A DNA stretch of 64,000 nucleotides from an uncultured cyanobacterium. GTDB lineage: Bacteria; Cyanobacteriota; Cyanobacteriia; PCC-9006; JAAUQQ01. Within the stretch, counting starts at the first letter, position 1. Every line of letters starts with the position of its first letter. Positions 39,262 to 43,846 of this stretch are shown one piece after another. Where the stretch lies: the NCBI GenBank assembly GCA_963718615.1, contig OY970368.1, positions 1,472,001 through 1,536,000 of the forward strand, in the 5' to 3' direction. The notes under the pieces were generated by a model that saw nothing but the letters and a program-made list of their open reading frames with translations, did not search any database and was not told the DNA's origin. Position numbers and translations under genes: made by a program.

Positions 39262-39573
39262 CTATAAAGCGTTGATCTTGTCGGTCAGATGCTGATCGTG
39301 AAACAGGTCTATTCCTACCGCTGACTTGATTAAATAGAGCAGGATTGCCAAACTCAGACTGACAAACACATTCAGACTAATTAATAAAAATGCCGCAACC
39401 AGTCCATTCACGACTCGCTCCGTCCCCGTGAGTTGGCGATCGCGACTCTTCTCCCGTCGCTCTTTCCCCATCAACAAAACTACATAATAGCGAGACACCA
39501 AAAGATTGATCCCAAACCGGACATCCAACACCTTATTTTTAGTATCCGTATCTGTCAGAGGGCCGTCTGTCAT
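39262..39573 (-). CDS. Small membrane hypothetical protein
   Basis: MTDG...LDVRFGINLLVSRYYVVLLMGKERR...LYLIKSAVGIDLF; ATG overlaps the upstream TGA. Confidence 0.65.
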   Translation of the reverse strand: MTDGPLTDTDTKNKVLDVRFGINLLVSRYYVVLLMGKERREKSRDRQLTGTERVVNGLVAAFLLISLNVFVSLSLAILLYLIKSAVGIDLFHDQHLTDKINAL

Positions 39574-40016
39574 ACCAACCACCCTAGGGCCAAAGCCCCG
39601 CCCCACCAGAACGTCAATAAATATCGCCAAATTTGTGCAGGACCCCGCCGTTGCCACAGTTGAGACGTAAACGCCAGTAGGTTCAACAACAACATGCCCA
39701 AAAACCACAGCAGAAGCAGCGTCATCGCCCATTGAGACGGTGCATTCCAGGGAGAGATCGCCTCCCAAGGCCCTGGCCAAGGCCGACGGGCTACGGCAAC
39801 CCACAGCAGCAGGGTGAGGCCAAGATTAGACAAGAAGATCGATTCAGTTGTCGTCCAAACAATATACAGGAGGACGAGGAACGTGGCGATCGCCAAGCCC
39901 TCAGGAGCCTCAAACAGCCGCAAGAGCCATCCCCCCGCGAAGCAACCCAGCGGAGCCAAAACCAGGCCGATTTGACCGAGGAAAAGAGCAGGGTATTTTT
40001 TTGCAGAAAGCTCCAT
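39570..40016 (-). CDS. Hypothetical membrane protein
   Basis: Trp/Leu-rich multi-TM ORF, translationally coupled to the next gene. Confidence 0.6.
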   Translation of the reverse strand: MELSAKKYPALFLGQIGLVLAPLGCFAGGWLLRLFEAPEGLAIATFLVLLYIVWTTTESIFLSNLGLTLLLWVAVARRPWPGPWEAISPWNAPSQWAMTLLLLWFLGMLLLNLLAFTSQLWQRRGPAQIWRYLLTFWWGGALALGWLV

Positions 40017-40093
40017 GCAACCCCATGAGACTGAATCAACGCCCCTAGCCTAGACAATCGCAGCGGGTCTCCCCAGTGGGGAATTACGGACGT

Positions 40094-40966
40094 TTAGACA
40101 GTGGCGAGTTGGCGATCGCGAGGGGATGCGGAGGGGGCTTGGGCAATCGACCGACCGAGGGCCGCAGCAAGGGGACGCAGGCTTTCGATCAGGTCGGCCA
40201 TGGCTTCGAGGGACAGGGTTTGTTGGGCATCGGAAATGGCTGCGTCGGGGCGAGGGTGACATTCAATGATCAGACCATCGGCTCCAGCGGCGATCGCAGC
40301 CTTGGCCAGACCTGCCACGAGGTCACGCCGTCCGGCAGCATGGCTAGGATCAACGATGACCGGTAAATGGGTGAGCTGTTTGAGGGCGACAACGGCACCG
40401 AGGTCTAGAACATTGCGGGTGTAGGTGTCGAAGCTGCGAATCCCCCGTTCGCAAAGAACCACGTTGGGGTTGCCATGGCTGGCGATATATTCTGCGGCCA
40501 TGATGAATTCTTCCAGCGTGGCGGCAAGACCCCGCTTGAGCAAAATCGGTTTGTCGGTTTCGCCGAGGGCCTTGAGCAGGTCGAAGTTTTGCATATTGCG
40601 GCTGCCCACTTGGAGCATATCGGCGGCATCGGCGAGGGTTTCAATTTGGGAAATCGCCATGACCTCGGTGACGACCGGTAAGCCTTGGCGTTGGCGAACC
40701 TGACGGACAATCTCCAGTCCCGGTGCGCCTACACCTTGGAAGTCGTAGGGAGAGGTGCGGGGCTTATAGATACCGCCACGCAAGGCTTGAATGGGGGCGG
40801 GTTTGAGGGTTTGGGCGATTTCTTCCATGATCTCAAGGCTTTCGATCGCGCAGGGACCCGCAGCGATGAAGAGTTCTGGGCCACCGATGAGGATGCTGTC
40901 GCTGAGGGCGATCGGGGTGGTGGGGTGGGTAGGGGTGGGTTTGCTGACGAGGGGTGCGGGTTTCAT
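40094..40966 (-). CDS. aroF: DAHP synthase, type I-beta, without an N-terminal regulatory domain
   Basis: Motifs AGPCAIES, YKPRTSPYDFQG, QVGSRNMQN, LLKRG, CERGIR, DPSH; 290 aa. Confidence 0.93.
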   Translation of the reverse strand: MKPAPLVSKPTPTHPTTPIALSDSILIGGPELFIAAGPCAIESLEIMEEIAQTLKPAPIQALRGGIYKPRTSPYDFQGVGAPGLEIVRQVRQRQGLPVVTEVMAISQIETLADAADMLQVGSRNMQNFDLLKALGETDKPILLKRGLAATLEEFIMAAEYIASHGNPNVVLCERGIRSFDTYTRNVLDLGAVVALKQLTHLPVIVDPSHAAGRRDLVAGLAKAAIAAGADGLIIECHPRPDAAISDAQQTLSLEAMADLIESLRPLAAALGRSIAQAPSASPRDRQLATV

Positions 40967-41035
40967 GGTTGTGTTCTCGGTGATGGGGTAGTGGGGTGAT
41001 GGGGTGATGGAAAAACTGGGGAGGGCTGGGGCATT

Positions 41036-41063
41036 AAAAAACCGCAGCCCTTGGACTGCGGTT
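41036..41063 (-). terminator. Attenuator terminator upstream of aroF
   Basis: mRNA reads AACCGCAGTCC-AA-GGGCTGCGGTT-TTTT, ending ~70 nt before the aroF ATG. Confidence 0.85.
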
Positions 41064-41113
41064 CACCTGGAGAGTTTTGGGTATCAGCGCTTAGCGCTCA
41101 CTCCAGGTGAACC
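41060..41113 (-). promoter_or_regulatory. Antiterminator hairpin of the aroF leader
   Basis: Perfect 13-bp inverted repeat GGTTCACCTGGAG / CTCCAGGTGAACC (41101-41113 and 41060-41072). Its 3' arm overlaps the terminator 5' arm; its 5' arm lies in the last leader codons. Confidence 0.8.
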
Positions 41114-41151
41114 TCCATAAACCAAAAAAAGTAAAACTTGTTAGAAAACAT
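41098..41151 (-). CDS. Aromatic-amino-acid leader peptide MFSNKFYFFWFMEVHLE
   Basis: ATG TTT TCT AAC AAG TTT TAC TTT TTT TGG TTT ATG GAG GTT CAC CTG GAG TGA; six consecutive Phe/Tyr/Trp codons upstream of DAHP synthase. Confidence 0.82.
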   Translation of the reverse strand: MFSNKFYFFWFMEVHLE

Positions 41152-41229
41152 GATGGGTGCGGGTTTGGGTTGACTTTTCGCCAAAATGAAAATTCTTGTG
41201 CCGGGACAATCGCTAATGTCCTTGTCTGT

Positions 41230-41259
41230 AAGGTAACAACTGTTTTTGGCAATTGTCAA
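41230..41259 (-). promoter_or_regulatory. Sigma70-type promoter for the aroF leader
   Basis: TTGACA-18 nt-TACCTT with a TGn extended -10. Confidence 0.6.
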
Positions 41260-41468
41260 ACGTTTGATCGGTCTTAATTTGGGGCTAATTCACGCTAGCG
41301 CCTCAGAGTCCTTGCATGAAAGCGATTTAGCAACTCTTCAGCAAACCCTGTAGCCAAGCTCAGGGTTCTCTCATCTTTCCCTAGGACCCTGCGGCTACAT
41401 TAAAGCCATCGCATGAGAGCTATCGCATTAGCCCACCCACCCCAACCACTTGAAATCAGCTAAGACCC

Positions 41469-42182
41469 ATGGCACAACCAAAGAGTAAGTTTCTAAAATA
41501 TATCGTGATTGGCACTGTCGTTGCTGGGCTCCTCGTCCTGGCGAAGCAATTTGATCTCCAAACAGTTTTTCACAATGCTCTGCTCTGGGTCGATAGCCTC
41601 GGTGCTTGGGGGCCGATCGCCTTCATCATCATCTATAACCTCGCGACCATTTTGTTCCTGCCCGGATCGCTGCTCACCCTCGGCGGTGGCGTGCTCTTCG
41701 GCGTGGTCAAAGGTTCCCTCTACGTTTTTATGGCTGCCCTCGTTGGAGCCACCCTCGCCTTTTTGATTGGTCGCTACGTGGCGCGGGGCTGGGTCTCGGG
41801 CAAGATTGCCGGGAATCAGAAATTTCGGGTGATTGATGAGGCGATCGCCAAAGAAGGTTTCAAAATCGTTCTCCTCACCCGCCTTTCCCCCATCTTCCCC
41901 TTCAACTTGCTCAACTATGCCCTCGGCCTTACCCAGGTTTCTCTCAAGGATTATGTCCTGGGGTCCTTGGGGATGCTACCGGGAACGATTATGTATGTTT
42001 ATATCGGTTCCTTAGCCGGTAGCCTTGCCACGATTGGCATGGAAACCATCGATCCCCAAACGGCACGCATCCAGTGGATTATCCGCATCGTCGGTTTTAT
42101 CGCCACCGTCGCTGTTACCCTCTACGTCACCAAAGTTGCCAAAAAAGCCCTAGACAACTCGGTTGAAAATGCAACCTTATAA
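41469..42182 (+). CDS. TVP38/TMEM64 (DedA/SNARE-associated) membrane protein
   Basis: Motifs LPGSLLTLGGG and LTRLSPIFPFNLLNY. Confidence 0.9.
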   Translation: MAQPKSKFLKYIVIGTVVAGLLVLAKQFDLQTVFHNALLWVDSLGAWGPIAFIIIYNLATILFLPGSLLTLGGGVLFGVVKGSLYVFMAALVGATLAFLIGRYVARGWVSGKIAGNQKFRVIDEAIAKEGFKIVLLTRLSPIFPFNLLNYALGLTQVSLKDYVLGSLGMLPGTIMYVYIGSLAGSLATIGMETIDPQTARIQWIIRIVGFIATVAVTLYVTKVAKKALDNSVENATL

Positions 42183-42289
42183 GCCAATTCAGCAATTTGT
42201 AGGTTATTAAATTCATGATCCTTAGCTAATGATTTGAACCGAAAACCCTCTGCCTACTTTTCCACTCCCCTTTATCCCAAAACATTCCC

Positions 42290-43846
42290 ATGAGCCAGTC
42301 CTACGCCTTCCAATCCCCCGTCGAGTTCCCCCCCTACGATCAATACAATCAGGAACTCATCTCCCACGTTCATCCCCCCAATTGGACCAACCCGCAACCC
42401 GCTAAAATCTATGATTTAGTTGTGATTGGAGCAGGCACCGCTGGCCTAGTTGTTGCCGCTGGAGCTGCTGGTTTAAACCTGGGTCTTAAGATTGCGCTAG
42501 TTGAAAAACATTTGATGGGGGGAGACTGCTTAAATGTGGGTTGTGTTCCTTCCAAATGCGTGATTCGTTCCTCCCGCGTTGCTGCCGATATGCGCAATTC
42601 TCTGCCCTATGGCATTAAACCTCCAGCCCATGTGGACGTCGATTTTGCAGCGGTGATGGAACGGATGCGGAAGCTACGGGCAGGCATTAGCCACCACGAT
42701 TCTGCTAAACGGTTTCAAAACTTAGGAATTGATGTTTTCCTGGGTAATGCTCAGTTTACGGCAGAGGGGCAAGTGCGTGTGGGCGATCGCAATCTCTCCT
42801 ACAAAAAAGCCGTTATCGCCACTGGAGCAAGAGCGGTTCGTCCCTCGGTACCGGGACTGGCAGATGCCGGATTTTTAACCAATGAAACGGTCTTTTCCTT
42901 GACTGAGTTACCCAAACGAATGGCCGTAATTGGCGGCGGCCCCATTGGTTGCGAATTGGCCCAAGCATTTCATCGGCTAGGTTCCCAGGTAACACTAATC
43001 CATAAAAATAGTCATTTGCTCGACAAAGAAGACGCCGATGCCGCTGAAATCGTCCAAAACCAGCTTAAAAAAGATGGCCTAGAATTTGTCCTAGGCGCAA
43101 AGCTAACGCGAGTCGAAACCACCACCGCAGGTAAGGTACTTTACTACGATTTAGGTCATGGTAATACAGGGTCAGTGATGGTCGATGAAATTTTAGTGGG
43201 TGCGGGTCGTCAACCCAATGTGGATGGTTTGGGGCTAGAAACCGTAGGTGTTGAATACGATCGCCGCAAAGGAGTTAAAGTCAACGATTATCTGCAAACT
43301 ACCAATCCCAAAATCTTTGCAGCGGGCGACATTTGCATGGATTGGAAGTTCACCCATGCTGCCGATGCAGCGGCTCGAATTGTCATCAAAAATACGCTAT
43401 TTTCCCCCTTCGGCATGAGTAAATCTAAGCTCAGTAGTCTAACTATGCCCTGGGTCACCTTTACCACTCCTGAAATCGCCCATGTAGGGATGTACGAGCA
43501 AGAGGCCAAACAGCAGGGCATTGAATACGAAACCATTCATATTCCCATGAGTGGGGTGGATCGGGCGATCGCCGACGGAGAAACCGAAGGCTTCCTCAAA
43601 ATCCTGCACCCCAAAGGGTCTGATAAAATTCTAGGAGCCACGATTGTGGCAGACCATGCTGGGGAAATGATTAGTGAAATTACGACGGCGATCGTCACCA
43701 AACAGGGGTTGAAAAAACTATCAGGTGTTATCCATCCCTATCCCACCCAAGCAGAAGTTATTAAGAAAGCAGCAGATGCCTATCGTAGAAAGCTGCTAAC
43801 ACCGACCAATCAGACGCTACTCAAGTTTTTGAGTCGTCTTTCTTAA
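42290..43846 (+). CDS. FAD-dependent pyridine nucleotide-disulfide oxidoreductase (MerA/LPD-like)
   Basis: Motifs GAGTAG, GGDCLNVGCVPSK, GGGPIG, IHPYPT; no C-terminal Cys-Cys pair. Confidence 0.88.
   Translation: MSQSYAFQSPVEFPPYDQYNQELISHVHPPNWTNPQPAKIYDLVVIGAGTAGLVVAAGAAGLNLGLKIALVEKHLMGGDCLNVGCVPSKCVIRSSRVAADMRNSLPYGIKPPAHVDVDFAAVMERMRKLRAGISHHDSAKRFQNLGIDVFLGNAQFTAEGQVRVGDRNLSYKKAVIATGARAVRPSVPGLADAGFLTNETVFSLTELPKRMAVIGGGPIGCELAQAFHRLGSQVTLIHKNSHLLDKEDADAAEIVQNQLKKDGLEFVLGAKLTRVETTTAGKVLYYDLGHGNTGSVMVDEILVGAGRQPNVDGLGLETVGVEYDRRKGVKVNDYLQTTNPKIFAAGDICMDWKFTHAADAAARIVIKNTLFSPFGMSKSKLSSLTMPWVTFTTPEIAHVGMYEQEAKQQGIEYETIHIPMSGVDRAIADGETEGFLKILHPKGSDKILGATIVADHAGEMISEITTAIVTKQGLKKLSGVIHPYPTQAEVIKKAADAYRRKLLTPTNQTLLKFLSRLS

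Follow-up and report, generated by a model that had tools for sequence, protein, structure and literature searches.

Organization of the aroF leader region

The window analysed here, a stretch of 64,000 nucleotides from an uncultured cyanobacterium (assembly GCA_963718615.1, contig OY970368.1, positions 1,472,001 to 1,536,000), carries on its minus strand a gene for a 3-deoxy-7-phosphoheptulonate (DAHP) synthase, aroF, preceded by a short leader element that is the subject of this report. An earlier note, made from the letters of this stretch, had described in the leader a promoter, a 17-codon upstream open reading frame (uORF) with six consecutive aromatic codons (FYFFWF), a perfect 13-bp hairpin, an intrinsic terminator and four bases, AACC, common to the hairpin and the terminator. 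All of these parts were recovered base for base on the minus strand (Table 1). The terminator lies where it had been placed, although its GC-rich stem, followed by T6, measures 10-11 bp in the fold and not 8 bp. Likewise, aroF had been put about 70 nt further on, and its ATG lies at 40966 (-), 69 nt past the T run of the terminator. Transcription is predicted to start near 41223 (-).

Table 1. Parts of the leader element and the gene downstream of it, in window coordinates
Feature	Position (strand)	Description
Promoter	41230..41259 (-)	-35 TTGACA 41259-41254, 18-nt spacer, extended -10 TGT-TACCTT 41238-41230
-10 hexamer TACCTT	41235-41230 (-)	TGT directly 5' (extended -10)
Leader uORF MFSNKFYFFWFMEVHLE	41098..41151 (-)	17 codons and TGA (41100-41098), ATG at 41151
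Regulatory codons FYFFWF	41119..41136 (-)	TTT TAC TTT TTT TGG TTT; Phe, Tyr and Trp all represented
Antiterminator 5' arm GGTTCACCTGGAG	41101..41113 (-)	Final uORF codons; abuts the stop codon
Antiterminator 3' arm CTCCAGGTGAACC	41060..41072 (-)	13 bp with the 5' arm, perfect pairing
Shared AACC	41063-41060 (-)	End of the antiterminator 3' arm and first four bases of the terminator
Inner hairpin AGCGC-UAA-GCGCU	41086..41098 (-)	Apical part of the antiterminator; begins at the last base of the stop codon (fold)
Intrinsic terminator AACCGCAGUC / CAAG loop / GGCUGCGGUU	41036..41063 (-)	T run 41041-41036
Terminator arms AACCGCAGTC and GGCTGCGGTT	41063-41054 and 41049-41040 (-)	CAAG loop 41053-41050
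aroF	40094..40966 (-)	Type I-beta DAHP synthase, 290 amino acids, catalytic barrel only

The leader of 211 nt folds with a z-score of -3.56, and none of 200 shuffled sequences folded as well. Among the 53,783 short ATG reading frames of the 6.1-Mb genome (10-40 amino acids, six frames), only two contain a run of six aromatic residues, one of them being the leader uORF. A second copy of the element was not found in the window genome by BLAST, the next best match having an E value of 0.11 over 18 nt.

The gene downstream of the leader encodes a barrel-only DAHP synthase

The 290-residue product of aroF scored 257 bits against PF00793, 357 bits against TIGR01361 (cut-off 267.75) and 394 bits against NF006421 (cut-off 335), the last match covering profile positions 71-336 of 338. 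Identity as a KDO8P synthase was considered and rejected, as TIGR01362 gave 129 bits against a cut-off of 314 and all KDO8P synthase models remained below their cut-offs. Residue 15 of the enzyme aligns to residue 91 of a cyanobacterial paralogue of 355 residues that spans the full-length DAHP synthase models, and the N-terminal extension of about 75-90 residues present in this paralogue is missing from the 290-residue enzyme. Because the profile match begins at position 71 and the alignment at residue 91 of the paralogue, we regard the enzyme as a bare catalytic barrel. In Thermotoga-type enzymes the N-terminal extension is an allosteric domain that carries feedback inhibition. A transcriptional sensor would therefore make sense for an isozyme from which this extension is missing.

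The window genome encodes a second DAHP synthase, outside the window (L141:678-1742), which is a type I-alpha enzyme of 354 residues (TIGR00034, 505 bits); a type II DAHP synthase was not found in this genome. The earlier note had presented DAHP synthase as the entry step to the three aromatic amino acids. The gene is indeed a DAHP synthase but, given the type I-alpha enzyme, it encodes one of two entry enzymes and not the sole one. No aromatic codon run was present in the 401 nt around the start of the type I-alpha gene (378 nt of them upstream).

The reading frame and the promoter are conserved

The earlier note had proposed that regions upstream of cyanobacterial aroF homologues be compared for an aromatic-rich uORF with covarying stems, and that the leader be folded with and without its 5' arm. 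When the leader was compared with 40 relatives by BLAST, six of the seven same-family genomes contained a block corresponding to 41136-41036 (83-92% identity), weaker matches appeared in other families, and wherever the locus of a relative included the gene, this block stood upstream of the aroF orthologue. A degenerate pattern derived from the alignment was then scanned over one genome per species, for 185,579 species, and matched at least 120 stretches, 119 of which, among the matches listed, carried an aromatic leader. A match labelled Gammaproteobacteria (L089) was rejected as a carrier, being a chance match inside a long reading frame. Together with 14 sequences from relatives, the 119 pattern loci formed a comparison set of 133 sequences.

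An ATG reading frame of 12-30 amino acids in the frame that reads Val-His was present in 130 of the 133 sequences, as against 0 and 3 in the other two frames. Its conservation upstream of aroF homologues, across many families, thus bears out what the earlier note had anticipated. The distance from the first G of GGTTCAC to the start of the stop codon is 13 nt in 130 of the 133 sequences (TGA in 130, TAG in 3), and leader length lies between 16 and 21 amino acids in 130 of 131. From position -8 to position -3, counted from the Val codon, the 131 leaders carry, in order, Y86/F34, F98/Y26, Y98/F29, F102/W16/Y8, W120 and F111/Y12. These six positions are thus about 95-100% aromatic, with Phe and Tyr interchangeable, while the N-terminal residues vary. 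Phe, Tyr and Trp are all encoded in 128 of 131 leaders, and a run of at least six aromatic residues occurs in 103 of them. In the leader from Trichodesmium erythraeum IMS101 (L133), a TAG lies just 5' of the GGTTCAC arm, making the leader four codons shorter, and no in-frame ATG of the usual length was detected there by script.

Conservation extends to the promoter. The arrangement TTGAC-N17-20-TAnnnT was found within 160 nt upstream of the leader ATG at 114 of 129 loci, 97 of them with TGn, compared with 1.6% in a shuffled control. Additionally, a hairpin directly after the stop codon, variable in sequence, has a minimum free energy of -3 kcal/mol or lower in 94% of 131 members (median z-score -1.6); the inner hairpin of the window leader could possibly serve as a pause or synchronising hairpin.

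Two mutually exclusive helices covary

Both stems of the leader covary, as had been predicted. In an alignment of 85 non-redundant sequences, 76 of them derived from the pattern, the antiterminator was paired in 90.2% of cells, with 76 double-change cells versus 29 in shuffled alignments, and none of 500 shuffles scored as high; sliding one strand by 1-3 columns lowered pairing to 32-53%. The terminator was paired in 93.9% of cells, with 34 double-change cells versus 8.9 in shuffles, and here too none of 500 shuffles scored as high. The first base of the AACC segment, which takes part in both helices, forms A-U in 72, G-C in 11 and G-U in 1 of the terminators (unpaired or other in 1), and U-A in 73 and U-G in 12 of the antiterminators. 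Where this shared nucleotide changes from A to G, its terminator partner changes from U to C while a U-A or U-G pair is kept in the antiterminator. One nucleotide is thus constrained by two partners, which fits the expectation for a switch.

Folding gave a consistent picture. With the 5' arm free, the minimum free energy structure of the window leader contains the 13-bp antiterminator and a residual 6-bp hairpin (-41.0 kcal/mol); forcing the full terminator yields -39.5 kcal/mol, at a cost of 1.5 kcal/mol. When the 5' arm and the stop region are masked, an 11-bp terminator stem abuts the U tract. Across the family, the antiterminator formed in 116 of 131 members with the arm free; with the arm and the 9 nt after the stop codon masked, 121 of 131 formed the full terminator directly beside the U tract, in agreement with the outcome foreseen for this comparison. 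The leader therefore contains a helix that shares AACC with the terminator and is mutually exclusive with it; the 5' arm of this helix extends up to the stop codon, where a ribosome finishing the uORF could reach it.

The element is tied to one isozyme

Among the matches listed, an aroF orthologue lies 90-770 nt downstream of the element, on the same strand, at 112 pattern loci; the remaining seven elements were at the edge of the retrieved sequence or no more than about 400 nt from it. Almost all carriers among these matches are labelled cyanobacteria, including Nostoc (with Nostoc punctiforme, L124, among them), Calothrix, Scytonema, Fischerella, Coleofasciculus, Leptolyngbyaceae and Nodosilinea, as well as Stenomitos, Laspinema, Moorena, Symploca, Trichodesmium erythraeum IMS101 and others.

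To quantify this association, a covariance model built from the alignment (R1) was searched against 151 genomes sampled evenly from the class. It matched exactly once in 54 genomes (46 of the 132 of high quality), and once in the window genome. A protein search, with the two sets compared by hand, identified a close aroF orthologue (E ≤ 4e-107, 64-100% identity) in 55 of the 151 genomes, namely the 54 holders of R1 and one further genome, G125. The element is accordingly present in 54 of 55 genomes with the close orthologue and in none of the 96 without it. A paralogue of about 50% identity, with open frames of about 350-380 amino acids, stands alone in many of the other genomes and also occurs in many of the holders. 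The element is thus tied exclusively to the barrel-only isozyme, which lacks the N-terminal extension of the paralogue.

A second aromatic leader follows in tandem

The interval from the first terminator to the gene holds a second aromatic uORF at 107 of the 112 pattern loci (103 of 131 when only ATG starts are counted). Typically this uORF reads M-T-Y-F-S-S-W-F-Y-G-F-Y-F-W-P-R-x-S-S-G; the leader at L008:1332-1423 (-), with a uORF like ..SWFYGFYFWPRxSSG*, is an example, and the window has none. The last codons of the second uORF, GTTCCGGG, together with the stop codon, are a near copy of the 3' arm of its terminator, and both are complementary to a middle segment, GCCCGGAAC. The arms GTTCCGGG, GCCCGGAAC and GTTCCGGGC therefore overlap fully, and from its sequence the second leader appears to be a full-overlap three-segment attenuator. 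Over 40 sequences, both partners covary with the middle segment (91.1% and 93.9% of cells paired), and in neither case did any of 500 shuffles score as high.

A model of the second leader (R2) matched 48 of the 151 genomes, these being the 47 holders of the first element from outside the window's family and G125. None of the eight genomes of the window's family, among them that of the window itself, gave a match. G125 carries the second type alone before its orthologue (L156:470-610, MIVRASWFYGFFYWLPEGSGQS), and two loci labelled Pseudanabaenaceae (L058, L079) carry the first type alone, as does the window. Since a second leader with a three-segment overlap occurs at aroF, the same logic would have evolved, or been kept, twice at this gene.

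Tandem leaders were also found in five carriers (L081, L116, L108, L041 and L127; genomes G151-G155) with assemblies of 4.4-6.4 Mb of unstated completeness, whose labels comprise Obscuribacterales, Melainabacteria, Bryobacterales and Proteobacteria, mostly the first two. The photosystem reaction centre family PF00124 had no match in these five assemblies and did match in Synechococcus elongatus, used as a control. The leaders of the five form a distinct subgroup ending in EVHL[GA]. In view of the missing PF00124 match, the device seems to occur in apparently non-photosynthetic relatives as well. The tandem pair may even predate the split from these relatives, as the same pair is present in five genomes without reaction centre genes.

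More generally, we incline, by a narrow preference, to the view that attenuation is old and widespread in the Cyanobacteriota and that an allosterically blind isozyme is gated by aromatic leaders, two in series in most lineages, of which the family of the window has kept the first and G125 the second.

A ribosome-mediated attenuator as the most probable function

Taken together, the sequence comparisons support the interpretation of the earlier note: the element is very probably a ribosome-mediated leader-peptide transcription attenuator of the barrel-only type I-beta DAHP synthase. Most likely, it would turn on this first enzyme of the aromatic pathway only when Phe, Tyr or Trp is in short supply. 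Transcription would begin at the conserved extended -10 promoter, and a ribosome would read the 17-codon leader while RNA polymerase makes the next 80 nt or so. With Phe-, Tyr- and Trp-tRNA plentiful, the ribosome would get to the UGA and cover the 13-nt 5' arm that ends at the stop codon. The 3' arm would then be left single-stranded, its AACC would join the downstream GC-rich stem, and the resulting 10-11-bp terminator would stop transcription near 41036. If any of the aromatic aminoacyl-tRNAs were scarce, the ribosome would instead stall in the FYFFWF run, 5-20 nt short of the 5' arm. Left free, the 5' arm would pair with the 3' arm as soon as the latter had been made, the four bottom pairs of the terminator would be withheld, and the polymerase would enter the gene. 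In terms of geometry, taking ribosome dimensions as they are generally known, the arm is wholly covered when a ribosome stands at the stop codon and stays free when one stalls on the first four aromatic codons.

Several observations weigh against this interpretation. The caution in the earlier note that the two helices overlap by only 4 nt was correct as to size, but these four nucleotides take in the bottom pairs beside the U tract, which are of special importance in a terminator. The two states are nearly iso-energetic, the gap between them having a median of -1.0 kcal/mol across the 131 sequences and a range from -2.1 to +2.0, and with the arm free the residual 6-bp hairpin still forms before GGUUUUUU. 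Given folds so close in energy, the switch must be kinetic; the antiterminator would form first and so withhold the bottom pairs that must form beside the U tract. A simple consensus scan of 40000-42500 called 0 promoters and 0 terminators, and the -10 hexamer TACCTT agrees with TATAAT at only three of six positions. We do not take this zero as a verdict, because the -10 element is of the extended type with a weak hexamer and because the terminator is backed by the fold and by covariation. As the earlier note had stated, there is no Shine-Dalgarno sequence before the window leader, and this holds for the family, with a Shine-Dalgarno-like sequence upstream of only 9 of 131 leaders. Many cyanobacterial genes lack such a sequence. 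Being a trait both of the family and of many genes in the phylum, its absence is no argument against translation. When the A site holds the last Phe codon, and perhaps also when it holds the Trp codon, the stalled ribosome itself may lie over the GGUU of the arm, which makes sensing of Trp geometrically the least certain. Finally, two properties of the sample reduce the weight of the counts: some loci of the leader set are duplicated between the two routes and the genomes are related, so that the sequences are not independent, and the search pattern fixed GGTTCAC and GTGRACCGC, the invariance of which is by construction, so that only the free columns count as evidence of covariation.

Three other explanations were weighed. 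The one that holds up best, although we think it unlikely, is a translation-coupled attenuator that reports general translation capacity, or the supply of Phe (and Tyr) only, and not all three amino acids. Phe codons dominate the run, and by the above geometry the single Trp codon would lie near the edge of the range of stall positions that leave the arm free. Moreover, the aroR leader (Phe-Tyr-Phe) of Corynebacterium glutamicum answers limitation of Phe and not of Tyr, according to the part of a review that summarises the aroR-aroF attenuator (Neshat et al. 2014, in PMC11802643). The pattern of conservation, however, does not single out Phe: Trp is the most conserved position of the run (120 of the 130 leaders that have a residue at this point), two positions retain Tyr, and leaders encoding all three amino acids are the rule.

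Very unlikely, in our judgement, is a conserved short transcript that is a small gene of its own, encoding a hydrophobic micro-protein, a trans-acting small RNA with its own terminator, or both, with constitutive read-through into aroF. The narrow length range of the peptide would suit such a gene, as would a unit with its own promoter and terminator, and terminated leaders of other attenuators do act in trans in some bacteria, as described in the available text of PMC13613805. Yet the N-terminal residues are not conserved, Phe and Tyr swap freely at the aromatic positions, and the apparent C-terminal conservation coincides with an RNA arm. The element is, moreover, always single-copy and never apart from one isozyme in the 151 genomes, and 5' arm, stop codon and terminator overlap are positioned with single-nucleotide precision, which a free-standing gene would not require.

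Least probable of all is an RNA switch that senses a protein, uncharged tRNA or a metabolite and not the position of a ribosome, the uORF being incidental or a tuning device: the very high nucleotide conservation from the aromatic codons to the terminator and the conserved inner hairpin, whose role would otherwise stay unexplained, would agree with it, but there is one hairpin with a terminator and no multi-helix ligand-binding architecture, no T-box, riboswitch or other Rfam family matched beyond chance level at E up to 10, the frame-specific reading frame, fixed stop position and conservation by amino acid class would be left unaccounted for, and an aromatic run is encoded once more in the second leader of this gene, which is unrelated to the first.

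Comparison with known attenuators

The Rfam families Phe_leader and Trp_leader describe the Escherichia coli pheL-pheA and trpL-trpEDCBA attenuators. A cmscan search of 40000-42500 against 4,227 Rfam families at E up to 10 returned chance-level matches only, namely sbrA (22.4 bits, gathering score 45) and snoRNA and miRNA models; none of the leader families (Phe_leader, Trp_leader, the leu/phe leader and others) nor T-box had a covariance-model match in this interval. Functionally, the ribosome-mediated attenuator proposed here would resemble the two E. coli systems, as these are outlined in the consulted part of PMC11802643: a uORF rich in codons for the end product precedes a gene of the aromatic pathway, antiterminator and terminator exclude each other, and the position of the ribosome decides between them. 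In contrast to them, the cyanobacterial leader shows no Rfam similarity to either at E up to 10, and it is built of three segments with a 4-nt overlap, as opposed to the four-segment 1:2/2:3/3:4 layout. A fourth segment, that is, a 1:2 pause or anti-antiterminator hairpin as in the trp layout, was not found in the leader; this hairpin defines the trp-type layout and not the functional class of leader-peptide attenuators. The leader also differs from those of E. coli in that it should read through, not terminate, when it is not translated, and in that codons for Phe, Tyr and Trp occur together in it and the step that it would control is the shared first one, not a branch.

A further functional counterpart is the C. 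glutamicum aroR-aroF attenuator, in which, by the description in PMC11802643, an aromatic leader peptide likewise precedes a DAHP synthase operon and stalling raises read-through. That system belongs to another phylum and its run comprises three residues without Trp, so far as this description goes, and the likeness is functional only. In cyanobacteria, the element has six aromatic positions, and another attenuator usually stands in tandem with it. Another counterpart is the uORFC-13-1 motif (Brewer et al. 2021, PMC8632094), which occurs exclusively upstream of aroF and in which a predicted uORF containing Phe codons lies beside a terminator stem. According to the portion of that paper available to us, its 24 representatives come from Acholeplasma and environmental sequences only; the consensus differs from ours, and none is placed in cyanobacteria. 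Within the phylum, a small reading frame, Sml0012, precedes the shikimate pathway gene aroQ in Synechocystis 6803 and its authors suggest an attenuator peptide (preprint 10.64898/2025.12.20.695498). As far as the accessible text of this preprint goes, the product is a stable protein of 45 amino acids detected by western blot and mass spectrometry. It differs from the element described here in preceding another gene and in being proposed to affect translation, and neither a terminator/antiterminator pair nor an aromatic codon run is described in that text.

No description of the element was found in the full-text literature; subscription journals and the supplementary tables of transcriptome studies, where it may be listed as an unnamed small RNA or 5' untranslated region, lay outside the scope of this search. 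The kind of device is known from trpL, pheL and Corynebacterium aroR, whereas this leader family appears to be new, as do its wide distribution, its occurrence in tandem and its link to a single isozyme.

Implications for cyanobacterial regulation

Little is understood of how cyanobacteria regulate their shikimate pathway, which metabolic engineers target to obtain aromatic products. The element is likely a native control point as well as a ready-made sensor part for aromatic amino acids. The combination of a barrel-only isozyme with control at the RNA level suggests that allosteric and transcriptional feedback share the work. Neither the longer paralogue nor the type I-alpha enzyme of the window genome has such a leader.

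Leader-peptide attenuation requires that the ribosome keep pace with RNA polymerase. If the proposed attenuator is real, ribosomes in the Cyanobacteriota would trail RNA polymerase closely enough for classical attenuation. A conserved attenuator would thus make the coupling of transcription and translation directly testable in a phylum that, to our knowledge, lacks Rho. The tandem of two unrelated aromatic leaders, and likewise the lineages with a single leader, offer a natural case for how serial attenuators shape a response.

A comparative study of 2016 (PMC4833913) stated, in the text available to us, that reliable data on cyanobacterial attenuation did not exist, in agreement with the remark in the earlier note that it is scarcely documented there. 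Set against this statement, the present family combines conservation of the reading frame, covariation of two helices and association with one gene in about a third of the sampled genomes.

Other reading frames and neighbouring sequence

Four other aromatic-rich short reading frames of the window genome (C1:8368-8469, 2235243-2235296, 5907528-5907617 and 4026329-4026367) were set aside as chance occurrences. By eye, no hairpin followed by a T run was seen in the printed sequence downstream of these four, and no aromatic-pathway gene was found downstream; the frame of 464 amino acids that follows 2235243-2235296 matched no NCBIfam family. The first, C1:8368-8469 (-), which reads ..QYFYWFF, is the only other short reading frame with six consecutive aromatic residues in the genome and is probably due to chance.

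Downstream of aroF, a reading frame of 180 amino acids (39262-39804 (-)) had no Pfam match. On the other side of the leader lies a divergent gene for a VTT/DedA-domain membrane protein (41469-42182 (+)). It is the sole neighbour there and starts, and does not end, at this point, for which reason a bidirectional terminator of a neighbouring gene was rejected.

The 69-nt spacer between the terminator and aroF is rich in C and A on the minus strand, and at 40975-41019 (-) it contains a repeated CCCCATCAC-like word (ccatcaccccatcaccccactaccccatcacc). In the minimum free energy fold of the long leader (41021-41050 (-)), the region of the terminator 3' arm, AGGGCUG..GGU, pairs with a downstream GCC..CAGCCCU, a pairing that could form only in read-through transcripts.

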